Positions 22,513-60,100 of a DNA stretch of 64,000 bases are shown one piece after another (the first letter of the stretch is position 1; every line of letters begins with the position of its first letter). The notes under the pieces are model-generated. The model was not told the DNA's origin. It worked only from the letters and a program-made list of their open reading frames with translations, and did no database searches. Origin of the DNA: Candidatus Hadarchaeales archaeon (GTDB lineage Archaea > Hadarchaeota > Hadarchaeia > Hadarchaeales > WYZ-LMO6); assembly GCA_038736355.1 (NCBI GenBank), contig JAVYML010000001.1, forward strand, positions 180,908-244,907. Reading direction: 5' to 3'. A program made the position numbers and the translations under genes.

Positions 22513-24228
22513 ATGGTTACCTACAGTGACCGTCCATGGATTAAAATTTATGAGCAAATAGGTCTTCCCTATAAATTCGACTATCCCAAGATACCACTTT
22601 TCGAACTCATCGATCGGGCGGCTGCGGAGTATCCCGAAAGCAAAGCCATGGTGTACTTCGATAGGGAGTATACCTATGCCCAGTTGAAGTCCTACACGGA
22701 TCGGCTGGCCACGGCCCTTAGCAAGAAGATGGGGATAAAGAAGGGGGATGTGGTGGGAGTACAGCTCTTCAACTCTCCCCAGTTCATCATAGGAGTCTAC
22801 GGTTCCTTAAAGGCCGGGGCCATTGTAGCCCTCATGAGCCCCCTCCTCCCCACCCCGGAGTTGGAGTACGAGATCAGCACTTCTGGCGCTAGGGTGGTCA
22901 TTACCGACGAGTCCAGAGTGGAGGAAATAAAGGCCATGAAACACCGCACCAAGCTGGAACAAATCATTGTTACCTCCGTGAAGGATTTCTCTCCCTCGGA
23001 AGATCCCGTGCCTCCGAAGGTGGAAGGAGCCATCCAACTGCGCCAACTCCTCTCGGAAACGGAAGCGGACCCGCCCAAGCTGGAAATAGATCCGGTAGAA
23101 GATGTTGCCCTCCTCTTCTTCACCGGGGGTTCCACCGGCATTCCCAAGGGGGTGATGCTCACCCACTACAACCTCACCACCAACATCGTCCAAACCTTCG
23201 GTCCTACGGCGGCAGGTATGCTGGAACCGAACAAAGGAAACTTTTCGGTGATGGGATGTCTGCCCTTCTTCCACATTTATGGTTTCACTTGCGCCATGAA
23301 CGTGGCCCTTTATTGGGCGGGATGCCTCCTGCTCGTTCCCGATGCCAGAGATACGAAGATGATTTACGAGCTACTGGTAAAATACCGTCCCCTTTTGATG
23401 CCCGGGGTTCCTACCCAATTCATGAGGTTGCTCCAAGAAAAGAATGTGGACCTTTCCGAACTGAAGGGATGTGTACCCTATAGCGGTGCTGCTGCCCTTC
23501 CCCCAGAGGTTTCCAAACAATTTGAGGAGAAAGCGGGTGTATTGGTCAGCGAGGGTTATGGGCTTTCGGAAGCCAGTCCCGTCACCCATTCCAACTTCGT
23601 GGCCATCCTCAAGGGTGCGGGGATCGATCTTGGGTTACCGGTAAAGCTGGGATCCATAGGCATACCCGTGCCCGATACGGATGTTAAAATAGTGGACATA
23701 GAAACGGGGACGAAGGAAATGCCCGTGGGGGAGCCAGGGGAAATGATCATCAAAGGACCACAGATAATGAAGGGTTACTGGCCCACCCCGGGCAGTGGTT
23801 TAAGGGATGGATGGCTGTATACGGGGGATGTGGCGAAGATGGACGAAGATGGCTACTTCTACATCGTCGACCGCACGAAAGACATGATCAACGTCTCGGG
23901 TTTGAAGGTCTATGGAAGGGTGGTGGACGATGTTCTCTACGAACATCCGGCTGTGGCCAAGGCAGCTGCTGTGGGCATACCCGATCCCGAGCGCCCCGGA
24001 AGCGAAAGGGTGAAGGCCTTCATCGAACTAAAGGAAGGATACGAACCCAGCGAGGAGCTGAAGGAGGATATTCTCAGACATTGTAGGGAGAGGCTTCCGC
24101 CCTACGCCGTCCCCAAATTCATAGAATTCAGGAAGGAACTTCCCCTTACCGTTACAGAGAAGGTTTTCAAACGGAAGCTCAGGGAAGAAGAAATAGAGAA
24201 GATGAAGAAGGCTGGGCTCCTTAAGTAA
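22513..24228 (+). CDS. AMP-dependent acyl-CoA synthetase/ligase
   Basis: 571 aa; AMP-binding motif FFTGGSTGIPKGVMLTHYN, YGLSE, GWLYTGDV. TATA-like TTTTTTATAGGGG sits about 40 nt upstream. Confidence 0.9.
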   Translation: MVTYSDRPWIKIYEQIGLPYKFDYPKIPLFELIDRAAAEYPESKAMVYFDREYTYAQLKSYTDRLATALSKKMGIKKGDVVGVQLFNSPQFIIGVYGSLKAGAIVALMSPLLPTPELEYEISTSGARVVITDESRVEEIKAMKHRTKLEQIIVTSVKDFSPSEDPVPPKVEGAIQLRQLLSETEADPPKLEIDPVEDVALLFFTGGSTGIPKGVMLTHYNLTTNIVQTFGPTAAGMLEPNKGNFSVMGCLPFFHIYGFTCAMNVALYWAGCLLLVPDARDTKMIYELLVKYRPLLMPGVPTQFMRLLQEKNVDLSELKGCVPYSGAAALPPEVSKQFEEKAGVLVSEGYGLSEASPVTHSNFVAILKGAGIDLGLPVKLGSIGIPVPDTDVKIVDIETGTKEMPVGEPGEMIIKGPQIMKGYWPTPGSGLRDGWLYTGDVAKMDEDGYFYIVDRTKDMINVSGLKVYGRVVDDVLYEHPAVAKAAAVGIPDPERPGSERVKAFIELKEGYEPSEELKEDILRHCRERLPPYAVPKFIEFRKELPLTVTEKVFKRKLREEEIEKMKKAGLLK

Positions 24229-24246
24229 AAAAAGAAAGAAAAAAGT

Positions 24247-24818
24247 TCAAACGTATTCGTCCACGAAGATCGTTGGCACTTGTGAAGCGATCTTTCCCAT
24301 CTGTTGCGTCGCCTTGATGTACCTCATCACCTTGCTCATGTCTCCCTGGAGTTTCATCTTGCCAGTGAGCACCAGCTTGGTGGCATCGCTCTCGGCCTTC
24401 GCCAGCTTCTTCCAAGAATCGTAAGAACCTATCAGTTTGAAGCCCACCTGCACCTCGTTGGGATCCTTCAGCAGGCGCATACCCGTGCACTTCCCATCCT
24501 TGAGCCCGACGTACACATAGATGGTCTTCCCTTTCAGGTATTCCTTCATGACGGCCTTGAATTCCTCCTGGATTTTCTTGGCCTCCTCAAAGGTAATTCC
24601 TGCCTTTTCCGCGAGCTGCTTGATTTCCGCATCAGACATCGTTTCCGCCTTCTGCAACTTTTCCACGGGGACCTCGTCTATCTGGAAGATGAAATCTCCG
24701 TTCCATCCCACGCCCCATCCCTTGCCAGCCTCGGCCATTACCGGATCGCTGTTAAGTCTTTTGACATATTCCTCGTTCCAAGCTTGGGTTCCAAAAGCCA
24801 ACTTTGTCATTCTCATCC
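24247..24818 (-). CDS. SCP2 sterol-carrier-like domain protein (paralog A)
   Basis: Start taken at MRMTKLAFGTQAW (ATG 24818); the track ORF extends to 25077 through an unlikely His/Gly-rich extension. Shares GKGWGVGWNGDFIFQID...LTGKMKLQGDMSKVMRYIKATQ with paralog B. Confidence 0.6.
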
Positions 24819-24908
24819 CCCTTTTAGGCTTCCTACACCTCCATAAATACCCTTCGGGACTCCCCTCTGGAACTTCAAGGGAAAAAAGAAAAAAGGGAAA
24901 AACTATGT

Positions 24909-25406
24909 TTAGACCATCTCGTCCAAGAATTCCGTCGGAATCTGTGAAGCGATCTTTCCCATGAGCTGCGTCGCCTTGATGTACCTCATCACCTTGCTCA
25001 TGTCTCCCTGGAGTTTCATCTTGCCAGTGAGCACCAGCTTGGTGGCGTCTGCTTCTCCCTTCGCCAGCTTCTTCCAAGATTCATAGTCTCCTATTAGCTT
25101 GAAACCGGCTTGCACTTCGTTGGGATTCTTAATGACCTTCGCACCCGTACACTTCCCATCCTTCAGACCTATCCAAGTATATACCGTGGTACCAGAGACA
25201 TACTTCTCCATCATTTCCTTCATGTACTTCTTCAGATCCCCTTCGGGCAGTTGCTCTATTTTCTCCACTGGCACCTTGTCTATCTGGAAGATGAAATCTC
25301 CGTTCCATCCCACGCCCCATCCCTTGCCTGCTTCTTCCAGTTCTTTGCTCTCATTCAGTTTCTTGACATATTCCTCGAGCCATTCAGGTGTCGGAAAAGG
25401 TACCAT
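24909..25406 (-). CDS. SCP2 sterol-carrier-like domain protein (paralog B)
   Basis: 165 aa; two exactly identical DNA tracts of about 80 nt and 52 nt shared with paralog A (24305-24384 vs 24967-25046; 24676-24727 vs 25278-25328). Confidence 0.6.
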   Translation of the reverse strand: MVPFPTPEWLEEYVKKLNESKELEEAGKGWGVGWNGDFIFQIDKVPVEKIEQLPEGDLKKYMKEMMEKYVSGTTVYTWIGLKDGKCTGAKVIKNPNEVQAGFKLIGDYESWKKLAKGEADATKLVLTGKMKLQGDMSKVMRYIKATQLMGKIASQIPTEFLDEMV

Positions 25407-25469
25407 TCGTCCACCTCTTTTTTTGGTTTACACTTTTCTTTCAGTCCATCCTCTATAAAACCTTTCCCT

Positions 25470-26078
25470 TCAAACTTTCTCTTTAACCAAAAGTTTGGGA
25501 AGGAGTTTCATGAGGGGCGCAAGCCTCATCGCGTCTGCTACCTTACCTTCCACCTTGTATCTACCCATTAAAGCACCCCAGATGGGATCCACCTTTCCCG
25601 TCAGGAGCCCCATCAAATCCGCGGTAGAGGCAAAGACGGTGAGATCTGCCATCATCGCTCCCCTTCCACCCCCAGACAGTTTTCCCTCACTCACCTTGAA
25701 GTGACCAACCATGGGAGAATCCGTTGCTTTGAAGTTCACAATGAGAGTTTTCATTTCCTCTAGCTTTTTCCTGATCTCGGGATCCTCCTCAGCCAAAACC
25801 CCCAATCCTTCCCAAAGCACATCCAGAAATCTGGAGGAGGCTTGAGGTACTTCCCTCACAAAGCTCGCCAAATCCAGCGTTTCCATCTTCTCCACCATCT
25901 TGGAGAGGAGATCGGGAACGGCCCTCAGGAATTCCCTCACCCCTACGCTCTGAATGGTATCCATCAAAAAGGAAAGACTAGACTTCAGTTCTTCCTCTGA
26001 TAGAGTTAGGGCCCCTTCCACCACCGATCTGAGGTCCTCCCCCACTCTCTCCGATAGGATTAATTGGCGCCTCCTCAT
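25470..26078 (-). CDS. helical N-domain + C-terminal SCP2-like domain protein
   Basis: 202 aa; C-terminus GKLSGGGRGAMMADLTVFASTADLMGLLTGKVDPIWGALMGRYKVEGK is SCP2-like. Confidence 0.5.
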   Translation of the reverse strand: MRRRQLILSERVGEDLRSVVEGALTLSEEELKSSLSFLMDTIQSVGVREFLRAVPDLLSKMVEKMETLDLASFVREVPQASSRFLDVLWEGLGVLAEEDPEIRKKLEEMKTLIVNFKATDSPMVGHFKVSEGKLSGGGRGAMMADLTVFASTADLMGLLTGKVDPIWGALMGRYKVEGKVADAMRLAPLMKLLPKLLVKEKV

Positions 26079-43919: not shown

Positions 43920-44647
43920 AGCCCCTCACCTTCATCCTTCTATCTATCCTTCTTTAATCCTACCGTTTTGAAGGAAACGGGCTTTTCTAGGAAAAAGCGC
44001 CGAGAGAGCAGGGGTAAGGAAGGGATCCTCTTGCACCCCAGTACCACAAAACCCGACATGGACGAAACCGGAGAATATAAGGGCAATCTTCAGGATAGCC
44101 GAAACCTTCTAAGATTTCTGGCGAGAAGGATTGAGCCCCTTCTCCAACCGGAGTTTTCTTCGGTGGACTCCAAAGGGATCCCGACGAACTCCTACGGCAG
44201 GAAGAGGAGGGTCCTGGGGTAGAGAGGAAGAAGGTTTTCAAGCTCTGCGCTCGTCGGCTGCTCTCTTGAAGAGCCCTTTTCATCAAGCCTCTGTAACGGG
44301 AGAAAGTTGGCAAGACCTCACGCAGGTCGGATGCTGCTCGAAGCGACGGAAGACCACTTCTTGCGGACTCCACTTACGATCATCTCTCTCCCAGGCTTGC
44401 CAAGGACCGCGCGGGCTTGGGGATGGTTGGAAGCTTAGACCTGAACTTATAGACTGAAAAAGGTTGCGGAGGGGCTTTGCAACCAGATACCTTCCAAGGA
44501 TAAGATACCAGGCTCCTCACGCTCAGGAGTGCTCCATTCTCCTGATGGCCGTTGGGGGCTGCCAAGAACAAAATTAGAGGCTTGCTCAAACTAGCCCTAA
44601 ACTAATTTTTCGACAGACCTTTAAATTTAAATACCCCTGAAAGAGTT

Positions 44648-47600
44648 TTGTTTGTGCAAGCAAGAATTAAAAATGATAAGCTGAGCATCCTTTTTGCATT
44701 ACTTTTAATATCGCTTCTCTCCCTCTCTTCTCTGTTCTTGACTCTGTCCTCTGTGAGAACGGTTTCCGCATCTCCGGACCCACATGCTCCGATATACATA
44801 GAGGGGGATGGAAATTTCAAACCGGCAAACGGCGTTCGCAGTGGTTCTGGAACCAAAACCGATCCCTACATCATCGAGAACTGGGAAATCGATGCTTCCA
44901 ACGCCCACGGGATCCACATTAAAAACACCACCGCGTATTTCGTGATCAGAAATGTGCTGGTTGAGAACGGGAAGACTACTTACCATGGGATTTTTCTGGA
45001 AAATGTGGTCAACGGCAGGATCGAAAACGTGGTGAGCCGGAAAAACTCTAGAGGCATCTTTCTCTCTTACTCCAACAACATCCGCCTCTCAACCAACACC
45101 GTGGAGAACAACAAATACGGCATCTATCTCTACTGCTCCTCCAGAAACGAACTCTGGAACAATATCGTGAGGTACAACGAAAATGGCAACATCTATCTCC
45201 TCTCCTCCAACAACAACACCTTCTTCTCCCCCAACACCGCGGGAAACGGCAGATACGGCATCTACCTCCACTCCTCCGACAACAACACCTTCCTCGGCAG
45301 CACCGTGGAGAACAACAGATACGGCATCTATCTCTACCACTCCTCCAGAAACGAACTCTTGAACAATATCGTGAGGTACAACGAAAATGGCAACATCTAC
45401 CTCATCTCCTCCAACAACAACACCTTCTCCCACAACACGGTGAGGAATGGCGGGAGCATTTATCTCGACTTCTCCGACAACAACACCTTCTCAACCAATA
45501 CCGTGGAGAACACCTTCATAGGTATCCACCTCCACTCCTCCGACAACAACACCTTCTCAACCAATACCGTGGAGAACAACACCTACGGCATCTATCTAGA
45601 CAATTCCGGCAACAACACCCTCGCTAATAACACCGTGAAAAACAACCGGGGACATGGCATCCGTCTCGACTCCTCCGACAACAACATCCTCACCAACAAC
45701 ACCGTGGAGAACAGCGAGGAGGGCATCTACTTCCGCTCCTCCGACAACAACACCCTCACCAACAACACCATGAAAAACAACTGGTCGGAGGGCATCTATC
45801 TATACAACTCCGACAACAACACCCTCACCAACAACACCGTGGGAAACAACGGGTCGAAGGGAATCTATCTCAACTCCTCCGACAACAACACCTTCTCAAC
45901 CAATACCGTGGAGAACAACGCCCGTGGCATTTATCTCTATTACTCCTACAGAAACACCCTCTCAAACAACAAGGTGGAGAATAACTCTACAGGTATCTAT
46001 CTCGACTCCTCTGACAACAACACCCTCACCAACAACACCGTGGGAAACAACGGATCGGAGGGCATCTACCTCCGCTCCTCCGACAACAATACCCTCACCA
46101 ACAACAGGGTGGAGAACAACTTTATGGGTGTCTACCTCGTAGGCTCCTCTAATATCACAATGGACAACAACGTAATGAGGTCCAATCGCTGTAACTTCCT
46201 GGTATTCGGTGATAAGCTCTCGCACTTCATCCACGACATCGACAATACTAACACCGTGAACGGGAAGCCAGTCCTCTACTTAACCGGGACCGAGAACAAC
46301 CTCGTGATAAATCAGGATAACCGGGTAGGCTGGCTGGGTGTGGTAAATTCCAACAACATACAGGTGGAGAACCTCGTGGTCGAGACTGTTATGCTTGCGT
46401 TCACGCACAACACCAGGGTAGAGAATGTGATCGTCGAGAACTCATTAGTTGGCATCTATCTCTTCTCCTCCTCCAACAACTTCCTCTTAAATAACACCGT
46501 GGGGAACAACATGGAGGAAGGCATCCATCTCCACTCCTCCCACAACAACATCCTCTCAAACAACATCGTGAGGAACAACCAGTTGGGAATTGGAGTTGAG
46601 AATGGCAATCTGTTGGTTATTTCCCACAACGTTATTGAGAACAACTTGATCCGGGATATCGAATTTGATGGAAAAAATTCGGTTTTTGAGGCCAACGTCT
46701 ATACAACAGCAAGAGGCATTCCCCATATACATTCAGTTTGTGTTACAGACATCACGCAGACATCCGCAACGATAACCTGGGCTACCGATAAGAACTCAAC
46801 AAGTGTTGTCGAATACGGCCCAACAGCGGCATACGGATACACGGCCACGGACGGTGTGACGACCAACCATCGGGTGGACCTCTCCAACCTTTCACCCGGA
46901 ACCTATCACTTCCGCGTCCTTTCAACCGACAGCGAAAACAACCTCGAGATATCGGGGGACTTCACCTTCACGACGATTTCCCTACCAACATCCATAACGC
47001 TCGAACCATCCTCCTTCTCCCTGGTCTCAGGAGGTTCCAGGGAGATAACGGCCATCCTGAGGGACAACGGGGGAAACCCACTTTCCGGAAAGACGATATC
47101 GTGGAGCACAACCGCTGGAACAATAACCCAGACAAGCATGACGGACAATCTTGGGAGGGCAACCGCAACCTTCACGGCTCCCGTCGTCACGCAAATGGAG
47201 AATGTGACGATTACGGCAACCTTCGCGGGGGATGCCGGCTACGGGGGGAGTCAGGAAAATGCCTTATGTACGGTCTCTCCCGTTCCCTCCACCCCAACAA
47301 CCTTGACGGTTTCACCGTCAAGTTTCACCGTCAGAGTTGGCGGAAGGATAACCCTAACCGCAATCCTCTTGGATAACGCTGGAAATCCGCTCCCAGGAAA
47401 GCAGATAGTTTGGAGCACGACTTCCGGTTCGATTGAACCTATGATAGGTCTCACGGACAACCACGGGAGGATGGAGGTAACGTTTTTCGCACCATCGGTC
47501 AGCGGGTCCGTTGAAATCGGAGTTATTTTCCAGGGAGATTCAGTGCATGCCAGAAGCCAGGCGATAGGTGTGGGTACCGTGTCCCAGCCTCGACCGGGGA

Positions 47601-47680
47601 CCAGGCCATGGATTCCGGTAGCTGTGATCGTCATCATAGTCCTCCCCACTGTTTTCTTTTTCCTCAGGAGAAAGAGGTAA
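44648..47680 (+). CDS. large secreted/membrane-anchored surface protein: signal peptide, about 20 parallel beta-helix (PbH1) repeats rich in N-x-S/T sequons, FN3 domain, two Big-like Ig domains, C-terminal TM anchor + RRKR
   Basis: 1010 aa; N-terminus MFVQARIKNDKLSILFALLLISLLSL...; 22-aa repeats SSDNNTFSTNTVENNxxGIYLxx; FN3 SATITWATDKNSTSVVEYGPT; Ig-like LTVSPSSFTVRVGGRITLTAILLDNAGNPLPGKQIVWSTT; C-terminus PRPGTRPWIPVAVIVIIVLPTVFFFLRRKR. Lower GC than its neighbours; TTG/GTG start. Confidence 0.85.
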   Translation: MFVQARIKNDKLSILFALLLISLLSLSSLFLTLSSVRTVSASPDPHAPIYIEGDGNFKPANGVRSGSGTKTDPYIIENWEIDASNAHGIHIKNTTAYFVIRNVLVENGKTTYHGIFLENVVNGRIENVVSRKNSRGIFLSYSNNIRLSTNTVENNKYGIYLYCSSRNELWNNIVRYNENGNIYLLSSNNNTFFSPNTAGNGRYGIYLHSSDNNTFLGSTVENNRYGIYLYHSSRNELLNNIVRYNENGNIYLISSNNNTFSHNTVRNGGSIYLDFSDNNTFSTNTVENTFIGIHLHSSDNNTFSTNTVENNTYGIYLDNSGNNTLANNTVKNNRGHGIRLDSSDNNILTNNTVENSEEGIYFRSSDNNTLTNNTMKNNWSEGIYLYNSDNNTLTNNTVGNNGSKGIYLNSSDNNTFSTNTVENNARGIYLYYSYRNTLSNNKVENNSTGIYLDSSDNNTLTNNTVGNNGSEGIYLRSSDNNTLTNNRVENNFMGVYLVGSSNITMDNNVMRSNRCNFLVFGDKLSHFIHDIDNTNTVNGKPVLYLTGTENNLVINQDNRVGWLGVVNSNNIQVENLVVETVMLAFTHNTRVENVIVENSLVGIYLFSSSNNFLLNNTVGNNMEEGIHLHSSHNNILSNNIVRNNQLGIGVENGNLLVISHNVIENNLIRDIEFDGKNSVFEANVYTTARGIPHIHSVCVTDITQTSATITWATDKNSTSVVEYGPTAAYGYTATDGVTTNHRVDLSNLSPGTYHFRVLSTDSENNLEISGDFTFTTISLPTSITLEPSSFSLVSGGSREITAILRDNGGNPLSGKTISWSTTAGTITQTSMTDNLGRATATFTAPVVTQMENVTITATFAGDAGYGGSQENALCTVSPVPSTPTTLTVSPSSFTVRVGGRITLTAILLDNAGNPLPGKQIVWSTTSGSIEPMIGLTDNHGRMEVTFFAPSVSGSVEIGVIFQGDSVHARSQAIGVGTVSQPRPGTRPWIPVAVIVIIVLPTVFFFLRRKR
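45060..46150 (+). repeat. in-frame tandem 66-nt coding repeats (beta-helix rungs), several copies near-identical at the DNA level
   Basis: Recurrent ctcctccgacaacaacaccttctcaaccaataccgtggagaacaac and ...ccctcaccaacaacaccgtgg... units. Confidence 0.75.
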
Positions 47681-57167: not shown

Positions 57168-60100
57168 CTAGCCGGGGAAAGGACAGGTCCTCGTGGGGCA
57201 TCCCCCCGCATACTCCGCTTCGGCCGCCACGAACTTCGCCTCCCTTCCTATGTAAAGCACCTGCTCCGGTTTGCTCCCATAGCGGAAAATCGTTACCCCC
57301 TTGCACTTGAGTCTCCAAGCTAGCTCGTAAACCCTTTCCACCTCCTCCACGGTGGCTTCAGAAGGAAGGTTGACGGTCTTCGAAACAGCGTTGTCGGTGT
57401 ATTTCTGGAAGGCGGCCTGCATCCTCACATGCCACTCGGGGGGGATGTCCAAGGCAGTGACAAAGATCCTCCTGAGGTCCTCCGGAACCCCTTCCACCCC
57501 GCGGAGGGATCCGGTCTTGGCTATTTCTTCGAGAAGCTTCGCACTGTAAAAACCCCTTTCCTTGGCCATGAGCTCGAAGAGGGGATGGATTTCGAAGAGC
57601 TTCCTTCCCCCCAGCACCTTCCTAATGAAAGAGAGGGCGAAGATGGGTTCTATCCCGGAAGAACATCCGGCGATGATGCTTATGCTCCCCGTCGGGGCTA
57701 TGGTGGTCACGGTGGCGTTCCGCATGGCCCCATACCTATCCTTCCAGATGCTCCTTTCGAAGTTGGGGAAGGAACCGCGCTTTTCGGCCAATTCCACCGA
57801 CTTCTTGCGTGCTTCTTCCGAGATGAAGCGCATCAATTTCTCCGCCAGCCTCAGTGCCTCCTCCGAATTGTAGGGGATACCCAATTTGATCAGCATATCG
57901 GCAAAACCCATGACCCCCAATCCTATCTTCCTGTTGGCCTTGGTGATTTCCTCTATCTCCCTGAGCGGGTACCTGTTGGCATCTATGACGTTGTCCAGGA
58001 AGTGAACGGCGCTTCTCACCGTCTTTCCCAGTTTCTCCCAGTTCACTTCTTTCCCCTCCACCATCCTCGAAAGGTTGATGGAGCCCAGGTTGCAGGATTC
58101 GTAGGGCAGGAGGGGCTGTTCCCCACAGTTATGCACACAGAAGCCGTTGGCATCGAAGAGGTTCACACCCGGGACCCTAACATCGAAGACCTCTTCTCGA
58201 CCCTTGAAGACAAGGCTTTCTACGGTGGCCAGGAAGCGTCCCCCCTCCATCCCCCCCTTGTAAAGGCTGAGAAGACGTTCCAAGCGTTCCCTTTTCTTCG
58301 GGTCTCCAAAGCCTATTTTCCGGGCGAAAACGAGGAGATCTTCCCCGGAAATAACCAGCTCGCGCACCCTTCCTTTGCGGATTTTCGAATATATCCCGAA
58401 CCTGAGGAGAATGCGCTGTACTGCCCTCAAAATCTCCAAGTTGCTCTGCACCAATCTCACACTAACACCCTTCCGTTTACTTCCCCGAACCGAACCATTG
58501 ACATCGAACAGTCCCCTAACCAAGCCCCTACAGAAGGCCGAAGAGGCCTTTTCCATCGGAACGGTGATCCTCCTTTCTCCTGGCCTCAGCCCCATTTCCC
58601 TCGCAAGTTTCTCCAAGGAATCTGATCCGTTGGGCAGTTTCTTCATACGGGCGTGGGTAAGGTCCTCCACCCTTCCCTCCTTCCCGTCGCCCAAGAAGAG
58701 ACCCACCAAATAGCCTTCCTCGAAGGTGAATTTTCCCTCCCAAGAAGTCACAACCCGGTTGCGGTTCAAAAGTACCTTATCCCCCCTCTCCAGTTTTCCC
58801 GCCGGTACCCACTCCATTTCCCTCGCGCATCCCGTCCTTCCCTTGACCCTGAGAACGGGATGATCCCATGTAAGACAAACCTCGAACCCTTCCCTCGTAA
58901 TCAGCCTGTAAACCGGCCTCACTCCAGTCCTGAAGAATCCCTCCTCCGTAGTTTCCCACTTCCCCCCATTCGCCACGACCACGAACTTTTTCCCGATGAG
59001 GTCCCTTACCTGTCTAGGTCCCTCTTCTGTCATGACCCAAGTGTAGACGGGCACACATGGGTTGGTAGCCTCTATCCTACCCACTCCAGGCGTGGGGTTG
59101 TGGCGGTTGATTTCGTCTATGAAGATCACTCCGGGATCTCCGCTCGCCCAGGCGGACTCTGCCATCAACTTCCAAACGCTCCTAGCCCTCAGTTTCTCCA
59201 CCCTCTCCCCGTTCCTGGGATTGATGAGCCAGTATTCCCCGTCCTCTTCCACCTTTTCCATGAACTCGTCCGTGACGGAGACGGAGAGGTTGAAGTTCTG
59301 TAGAAAGGTGTAATCCCTCTTACAGGTGATGAACTCCAGGATATCTGGATGGTCCACCCTAAGAATCCCCATCATGGCACCCCTTCTCCTCCCTCCCGCC
59401 TTGATGACCTCAGTTGTGATGTCGAAGATCCTCATGAAGCTTACCGGTCCCGAGGCCACACCCATCGTCGATTTCACCAGGTCCCCTTTGGGTCTGAGCC
59501 TGGAGAAGTCGAACCCCACACCCCCACCGCTCTTCTCTATGATGGCCATGTTCCTCACGGCCGTGAGAATACTTTCGAGGGAGTCTTCCACAGGAAGGAC
59601 GAAACAGGCGGAGAGCTGCCCCATTTCTGTCCCTGCGTTGAAGAGGGTAGGGGAATTGGGAAGGAACTCCAAACGCGCCATCATTCCGTAAAAGATTCGC
59701 TCGCTCTCCTCAGGATCCTCACCGTAGTTTCTATCTACCCCAGCTACGGCCTTCGCCACCCTTGAAAACATCTGCTGGGGTGTCTCGACGACTCTTCCCG
59801 TCTCATCCCTCAAAAGGTATCTACTGCGGAGGACCTCCAGGGCATTGACCGTAAGCTTGGGCTCGGGAATCCCGAGGCTCTGTCTCAACCTCCTTATCTC
59901 CTCTTTCTTCTCCCTGTACGATTGATATTCCTCCGCCACCCTTTCATAACCCCTCCTCCTCAGAACCTCCACAACCGCATCTTGGGCATCCTCCACGGAG
60001 GGTATCCTTTCCCTGAACCTCTCCTCCAGCATCCTTACCACCTCCCTGGTAACCTCCTCTGCTTTTTCCCCATCCTCCTGCTCCACGGCTATGAAGGCCC

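Follow-up and report, generated by a model that had tools for sequence, protein, structure and literature searches.

How readily can a protein built from a stack of like structural units gain or lose whole units, and does the DNA that encodes the stack keep a record of it? This question is raised by a 64,000-nt stretch of the genome of Candidatus Hadarchaeales archaeon (GenBank assembly GCA_038736355.1, contig JAVYML010000001.1, positions 180,908–244,907), hereafter the window. In the window, a gene of 1010 codons (44648–47680; on the forward strand, as are all parts of the gene described below, and numbered from the first letter of the window) encodes a predicted cell-surface protein, and a large part of this gene is taken up by a tandem array (45053–46192). 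An earlier reading of the letters, the original prediction, had taken the gene to be that of an adhesin whose 66-nt DNA repeats could be gained and lost without frameshifting. Here we describe the array at the DNA level and compare it with those of related genomes, one of which carries an additional unit, and we argue that it probably undergoes ordinary, slow concerted evolution.

The array comprises 17 in-frame units of 63, 66, 69 or 72 nt (most often 66), as delimited by Tandem Repeats Finder (TRF), by repeat-family searches and by hand parsing of the translation. Each unit encodes one PbH1 rung of 21–24 residues with the consensus GIYLxSSDNNTLxNNTVENNxx. The main TRF array (45190–46120) has a period of 66 nt, 13.9 copies, 69% matches, 4% indels and a score of 579; a second row with the same period covers 45087–45447, and a super-period of two units (135 nt, 73% matches) extends over 45524–46120. 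All 17 units lie in frame with the open reading frame, and the in-frame 66-nt periodicity that had been predicted is therefore real. A higher-order duplication of three units is also present at 45053–45428, where 45053–45224 and 45257–45428 are 87% identical at a spacing of 204 nt; at the same spacing lie exact repeats of 39 nt (45157 and 45361), 24 nt and 20 nt. The longest exact repeat of the gene, 47 nt, is common to unit 9 (45534–45580) and unit 14 (45873–45919), and the repeat string quoted in the original prediction sits inside it. Exact repeats of 41 nt were found at three pairs of positions, 45472/45538 (spacing 66 nt, in the adjacent units 8 and 9, 45472–45580), 45472/45877 (405 nt) and 45812/46013 (201 nt), and one further exact repeat, of 31 nt, has a spacing of 69 nt. 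The spacing is a multiple of three for every exact repeat found. Compared across a core of 60 nt, the units show 46–95% identity (mean 71%), the most alike being units 3 and 6 (95%), units 8, 9 and 14 (89–93%) and units 13 and 16 (90%). The term 'near-identical', as first applied to these repeats, thus fits some pairs and the conserved 40–47 nt of the unit, and does not fit the array as a whole.

Would the need to encode the same rung again and again be sufficient to generate such repeats? If so, the array would be a static structural feature maintained by protein constraint and codon bias, with no ongoing expansion, contraction or conversion. In 1526 comparisons of identical residues between units, the codon is identical too in 79%. 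Codon preferences taken from within the array already predict 69%, which would speak for a static array; this estimate, however, is circular, and the preferences in the rest of the gene, outside the repeats, predict only 42%. Four homologues that encode the same motif in equal or larger numbers of rungs (L004, L005, L006 and L009) contain no exact repeat of at least 20 nt and no TRF array. DNA repeats are present in the window gene, in its conspecific orthologue L002 and in one other relative, L003. Taken together, the codon sharing and the repeat-free homologues indicate that the homogeneity of the DNA is recent and lineage-specific and is not forced by the encoding of the rung motif. The similarity within the array is a property of the DNA and goes beyond what the protein requires, so that an exclusively protein-level resemblance, which the original prediction had named as the outcome that would speak against it, is not what was found. 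Two further observations are in keeping with a static array, namely the positional orthology of all the units common to the window and L002 but one (unit 6' of L002) and the equal lengths of the pairs L003/L008 and L009/L010. On the other hand, near-identical strains differ by one unit and by a sevenfold excess of array differences, synonymous ones included, as described below. We therefore give very little weight to a purely static origin.

Seven conspecific assemblies, all metagenome-assembled genomes (MAGs), were available for comparison of the array, and these provide two full-length alleles (the window and L002, GCA_038868455.1, protein P0124) and one partial allele (L001, GCA_038863995.1). 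L002 is fully syntenic with the window, and its flanks are 99.3% identical. Within the gene the two genomes are separated by a single indel, a gap of 66 nt (22 codons) at 46057/46058, seen in the DNA alignment, in the protein sequences and in the TRF output (13.9 copies in the window versus 14.9 in L002), which causes no frameshift. The additional unit, GIYLYNSDNNTLTNNTVENNDE, is present in L002 and also in L001, a separate assembly whose contig begins in the array and which is identical to L002 over their common part. As a result, 18 rungs precede the conserved central module of the window protein and 19 precede that of L002 (17 and 18 array units, respectively, plus the GIFLENVV rung encoded at 44987). 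As assembled, these closely related genomes thus differ by one whole unit, and the copy number is not the same in all relatives. The expected rung turnover without frameshift is seen as a clean 66-nt indel, and slippage or recombination would be its likely cause.

The origin of this unit is less straightforward. The extra unit of L002 is 97% identical over 60 nt to another unit of L002, 13', situated 270 nt upstream, and L002 consequently holds exact repeats of 60 and 63 nt. This likeness points to copying between units that are not adjacent. The microhomology at the indel junction amounts to only the ~10 nt of the neighbouring AGGGCATCTA, and the window allele is not obtained by crossing over once between any two units of L002; the event was therefore not a textbook unequal crossover. 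The 66-nt difference may represent either a gain in L002 and L001 or a loss in the window.

Unit number is not the only feature in which the two alleles differ. Between the window and L002 the array shows 44 differences in 1140 nt (3.86%), whereas the N-terminal part differs by 0.25% (a single difference in 44648–45052), the post-array helix by 0.57%, the C-terminal part by 0.52% and the flanks by ~0.7%; the divergence of the array thus exceeds that of the rest of the gene about sevenfold. Of the 44 differences, 26 are non-synonymous and 18 synonymous; in view of the latter, neither relaxed nor diversifying selection acting on the protein is a sufficient explanation of the excess. The differences are also patterned. 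Five units have an identical synonymous C>T change (AAC>AAT) at offset 44, and four are changed at offset 20; same-offset pairs of this kind are more frequent than expected in a permutation test (P=0.005). In addition, unit 6' of L002 is closer to unit 3 of the window than to its positional orthologue. Gene conversion among repeats, that is, concerted evolution, should leave patterns of just this kind, and we infer from them that variants have probably passed from unit to unit.

These observations are best accounted for, in our judgement probably, by an array of a beta-helix surface protein that evolves in concert in the ordinary manner, misalignment between units yielding both gain or loss of units and patches of conversion at a slow rate. 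According to this explanation, the rungs may have arisen or been homogenized recently, the units still having identical tracts of 30–47 nt and, in the sister strain, of as many as 63 nt. Such tracts could serve as substrates for misaligned replication or for RadA-type homologous recombination between units, and misalignment would result either in gains or losses of whole units, which preserve the frame, or in short patches of gene conversion that carry variants from one unit to another. Because all rungs are built on the same consensus, one rung more or less should keep the register of the helix, and the resulting alleles should be viable. The tempo would be slow, with a difference of one unit and ~4% array divergence between strains that are ~0.7% apart elsewhere, and it would involve no programmed switch. 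Which of the two molecular processes operates, slippage or RadA-type recombination, and in which direction the indel occurred are matters of inference, as are the surface location of the protein and its adhesive role or selective value.

Several points weigh against concerted evolution as the explanation. A mutational hotspot hit repeatedly could partly account for the parallel C>T changes. Every L002 unit except 6' and the extra one has its best match in its positional orthologue, which indicates that turnover is slow. The relatives L003 and L008, which are 99.5% identical, have equal lengths and show no excess of differences in the array despite DNA repeats of up to 34 nt; L009 and L010 (99.98% identical) are likewise equal in length. 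Finally, the comparison involves only two full alleles and one partial allele on short metagenome-assembled contigs, in which a strain-chimeric consensus or a local misassembly is possible. Over longer times, rung number is clearly free to change, as the number of rungs between the N-terminal cap and the central module ranges from ~3 to ~19 across the family.

A more dramatic possibility would be a programmed contingency locus, in which the length or antigenicity of an adhesin varies reversibly and at high frequency and is selected for evasion of viruses or for changes in attachment. The predicted surface location, the in-frame repeats, the length polymorphism between strains and the raised divergence of the array would all agree with such a role, as would the preponderance of non-synonymous changes noted above. 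Yet the mean identity of the units is only 71%, and the longest identical tract of adjacent units is 41 nt. Moreover, the strains differ by a single unit with the unit order conserved, a rough comparison of non-synonymous with synonymous changes does not point to positive selection, and no recombinase, diversity-generating element or silent cassette was seen next to the gene. A locus of this type is therefore highly improbable here. The 'classic' surface-protein variation envisaged at the outset holds in the sense of intragenic repeat variation of a known type and fails in the sense of a high-frequency phase or antigenic switch.

Could the difference in unit number have been created by the assemblers? 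In this alternative, the chief one to concerted evolution, both the length difference and the cluster of single-nucleotide polymorphisms would be products of collapse, expansion or mis-phasing of short reads from mixed strains. The locus is indeed difficult to assemble, and PMC6868369 gives background on such problems. Besides those of the window, L002 and L001, the assemblies of the source metagenomes are GCA_038831285.1, GCA_038855915.1, GCA_004347815.1, JGI 3300008000 and SRR27730014. The array is spanned in two of the seven assemblies, those of the window and L002, while the remaining five break in it or just after it. The L001 contig starts inside the array, at a point equivalent to window position 45926, and those of L014 and L013 start at 46306 and 46330, those of L011 and L012 both at 46434 and that of L015 at 46544; all five truncated conspecific proteins are thus at contig ends, and none of these contigs crosses the array. 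The window allele comes from a single assembly: the cluster of its protein, P0001, has one member. Six conspecific proteins are grouped in the 90% cluster of P0002, a close relative. Furthermore, the differences are concentrated where exact repeats of 30–63 nt occur. Against an artefact, the allele with 19 rungs was recovered identically in two independent assemblies, and collapse in a de Bruijn graph requires a junction k-mer, while only the ~10 nt of AGGGCATCTA are common at this junction. At 47 nt for the window and 63 nt for L002, the maximum exact repeats exceed many assembler k-mers but fit within typical reads. The window contig has a length of 460 kb, and differences specific to single units are found outside the repeated tracts as well. 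We consequently regard an assembly artefact as unlikely. The risk of assembly collapse that had been foreseen is apparent as contig breakage; no positive evidence of collapse of the array was found in the assemblies compared.

What kind of protein would be altered by such rung turnover? Profile searches place it firmly among the beta-helix proteins: PF13229 (Beta_helix) gives 318.8 bits (cut-off 25.9; E=6e-96), PF05048 (NosD) 288 bits (E=5e-86) and TIGR03804 ('para_beta_helix') 317.7 bits (cut-off 19.45), with 12 matches of its 44-residue, two-rung model, which fits the 135-nt super-period seen in the DNA. An AlphaFold2 model built from an alignment of ten sequences has a mean pLDDT of 90.6, and in it DSSP assigns strands of six, three and three residues every 22–23 residues over model residues ~100–485. 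This regular recurrence of the strand triplet indicates that each DNA unit encodes a single rung. The array domain is accordingly predicted to be a NosD-like right-handed parallel beta-helix with one rung per unit, its handedness being taken from the family assignment. Among solved structures, the sequence shows only weak resemblance to NosD 7o0y (E=4.5e-7) and to the AlgG epimerase, and a Foldseek search of the PDB with the whole model was taken up mainly by tandem Ig and fn3 domains, including the Ig-like ones of FdeC, intimin and InvE, and gave nothing specific for the helix. In parallel beta-helix geometry, a rung adds ~0.48 nm (about 0.5 nm) to the helix, so the change in stalk length per rung would be small.

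On either side of the array the protein appears to be organized as follows. A predicted Sec-type signal peptide (44648–44770), recognized by reading of the sequence, with a basic n-region, the hydrophobic segment LSILFALLLISLLSLSSLFLTL and ...VSA before SPD, is kept in L002 with one I>M change. It is followed by an N-terminal cap and two degenerate beta-helix rungs (44771–45052), delimited from the translation, the unit parsing and the AlphaFold2 strands, which are not repetitive at the DNA level. Beyond the array, a non-repetitive module (46193–46450; NFLVFGDKLSHFIHDIDNTNTVNGKP...NLVINQDN...VENLV) interrupts the helix and is modelled as a short helix with irregular strands. Its motif, NFxVFG..HFIHDIDNTN.VNGKP..YL.G.NNLVINQ.N..G.LG.V...N..VENLV, is conserved in other Hadarchaeal beta-helix proteins (L003–L010, 52–63% identity), and the L009/L010 protein has two copies of it. 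In the model the beta-helix then resumes for three or four rungs and is succeeded by three beta-sandwich domains, with a helix at the C-terminal end. A second mini-array of two 69-nt units, 83% identical by TRF, is situated at 46451–46579. By profile matches this part has a domain resembling fn3 or the N-terminal domain of purple acid phosphatase (46718–46984; PF16656, E=4.5e-7; fn3, E=0.0048; a beta-sandwich in the model) and two Ig-like Big_1/Invasin_D3 domains (46985–47599; PF02369, E=3.7e-19 in two stretches, PF09134 and Foldseek). The terminal helix, with the hydrophobic segment WIPVAVIVIIVLPTVFFFL and RRKR (47609–47677), is a predicted membrane anchor. No NCBIfam match to the PGF-CTERM sorting signal was obtained at E<=0.01, the C-terminus (PGTRPW...RRKR) having a plain hydrophobic helix. 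From these features the product is probably a secreted surface protein anchored in the membrane by its C-terminus. The name 'adhesin' is consistent with this domain architecture, and it goes no further than analogy.

Several signals around the start of the gene deserve comment. The product is 100% identical to P0001 (MEM0358578.1, annotated as 'NosD domain-containing protein, Candidatus Hadarchaeales archaeon' and derived from the 460-kb MAG contig), which was recovered by homology search. An exact look-up of the 1010-residue product in the protein database gave no match, because the database models use later start codons, P0001 beginning at GTG 44753 and P0124 at a TTG equivalent to 44738. 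Both models thereby lose the well-formed signal peptide that is encoded from TTG 44648 or from the alternative start, GTG 44654; the region concerned is 44648–44770 in the window and 9911–10000 in L002. The A/T-rich box TTTAAATTTAAATAC (44620–44634), ~15–35 nt 5' of these two candidate starts and the same in L002, is a candidate archaeal promoter element of the TATA type; owing to its position, the transcript may have little or no leader. A scan for sigma-70 promoters and terminators found nothing above shuffled sequences, with bacterial models that are not applicable to archaea. Further upstream, at 44561/44562, the window lacks a 59-nt segment present in L002 (9766–9824), with indels of 4 nt and 1 nt nearby in sequence that is otherwise 99% identical to L002.

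The genes within ~10 kb include those for a radical SAM protein, a tRNA methyltransferase, quinolinate phosphoribosyltransferase, a SepCysS-like protein, aspartate dehydrogenase, phosphoenolpyruvate synthase, an arginase-family protein, an L16-family protein, tryptophanyl-tRNA synthetase and elongation factor 2. The flanking genes, among them a tRNA-splicing endonuclease gene, are of the archaeal housekeeping type, and the four neighbours are those of the SepCysS-like protein, aspartate dehydrogenase, an 84-residue open reading frame and phosphoenolpyruvate synthase. The G+C content is 0.50 in the gene and 0.496 in the array, as compared with 0.57 in the flanks. A tblastn search of the window for a paralogue of the beta-helix gene found none; a second G+C dip, at 24001–26000 (0.49 versus ~0.57), accordingly contains no such paralogue. 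A neighbouring ribonucleotide reductase gene (~57200–57700 and beyond; 11251–11760 in L001 and 22500–23009 in L002) has matches to intein-splicing and LAGLIDADG homing-endonuclease domains, and the ribonucleotide reductase is 1003 residues long in the sister MAGs.

Relatives of the protein are numerous: over 2,200 matches from archaea and metagenomes reach E<=1e-20, many of which are named 'parallel beta-helix repeat protein'. Scans of genome and metagenome contigs with the non-repeat module retrieved only distant family members (52–63% identity), which were used as controls, and none of these has the four neighbours of the window gene within the flanks fetched. A search with the N-terminal 271 residues gave relatives of at most 52% identity and missed the identical P0001 itself, so that it says nothing on the absence of N-terminal fragments in other strains. 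In L005, which comes from another metagenome and is not syntenic, the DNA of the N-terminal cap (2440–2764) is 87% identical to that of L002 (9958–10282), whereas outside the cap the protein identity drops to ~44% and DNA repeats are lacking. Such a contrast suggests mosaic evolution or an exchange of the N-terminal segment.

What could the variation be good for? A bolder proposal is that the array, as a hotspot of concerted evolution particular to this lineage, generates diversity on the outward face of a major surface protein of the Hadarchaeales, with conversion and rung turnover kept by selection while the N-terminal cap, the central module and the Ig-like stalk stay fixed. Selection might act, for example, through recognition by viruses or partner cells or through the display of N-glycans. 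The array consists of asparagine to 24% and contains 24 of the 29 N-X-S/T sequons of the protein, and given this concentration the count of potential N-glycosylation sites follows that of the rungs. We consider this proposal doubtful; if it were true, this uncultured phylum would have its first variable surface-protein locus on record. Slow concerted evolution has more modest implications. A literature search combining Hadesarchaea and beta-helix found nothing, and the array would be the first documented example of its kind for the Hadarchaeales. In practice, the locus fragments most of the assemblies, and the gene models in the databases are truncated or start past the signal peptide; rung counts from MAGs are not reliable unless backed by long reads. 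Strain typing of the population is a further possible use of the locus.

How, then, does the array compare with known systems? Its nearest likeness is to the PbH1 proteins (PF13229, PF05048 and TIGR03804), which are very common in archaea and with which it shares the profile scores, the asparagine-rich rung of 22 residues and, in the model, three strands per rung. It differs from most of the relatives examined in that they have diverged at the DNA level, whereas the window gene and L003 still have DNA repeats. NosD, the periplasmic protein that takes part in maturation of nitrous oxide reductase in the NosDFY system (PDB 7o0y, TIGR04247), belongs to the same beta-helix fold family. The window protein, however, is more than twice as long and has fn3, Big_1 and anchor domains. 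It was rejected as a NosD orthologue, as it reaches 167.3 bits with TIGR04247 against a cut-off of 300 and no nosZ, nosF or nosY is found among the genes within ~10 kb.

A closer parallel in overall design may be the adhesin-like proteins (ALPs) of Methanobacteriales, repeat-rich predicted surface proteins that consist of the same blocks, a right-handed beta-helix, archaeal Ig-like 'Big' domains and a membrane anchor, and whose beta-helix domain is often annotated automatically as NosD, AIDA or FhaB (bioRxiv 10.64898/2026.08.03.742440). Judged from the sequence, the Pfam matches and the AlphaFold2 model, the window protein has the full predicted ALP-type architecture of signal peptide, beta-helix, Ig-like domains and membrane anchor. 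It belongs to a different phylum, the Hadarchaeota, and is dominated by the beta-helix, whereas ALPs are described as consisting mainly of repeats of the Big domain; the likeness is one of architecture. The beta-solenoids of bacterial ice-nucleation proteins (PMC9418140 and PMC10727499) resemble the array in having one short repeat per coil and an array length that sets the length of a surface rod. They represent another fold class and motif, with coils of 16 residues, and neither a sequence relationship nor an ice-related function would be expected here.

With regard to variation, the obvious counterparts are the B repeats of SasG from Staphylococcus aureus, Ilm from Yersinia ruckeri and the flocculins of yeast (PMC6868369), which likewise have in-frame units, a strain-variable number of units, a cell-surface location and broken or unreliable assemblies. 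Their units measure ~300–400 nt, are identical or nearly so and change at high frequency, whereas those of the window gene measure 66 nt, are 71% identical on average and differ by one between strains. Intragenic variation of tandem repeats in a surface protein built from repeats is thus an already known type. What the Hadarchaeal locus would add is modest biology of the same kind, with whole-rung indels and conversion between rungs in a beta-helix surface protein of an uncultured archaeal phylum, as in bacteria and yeasts.

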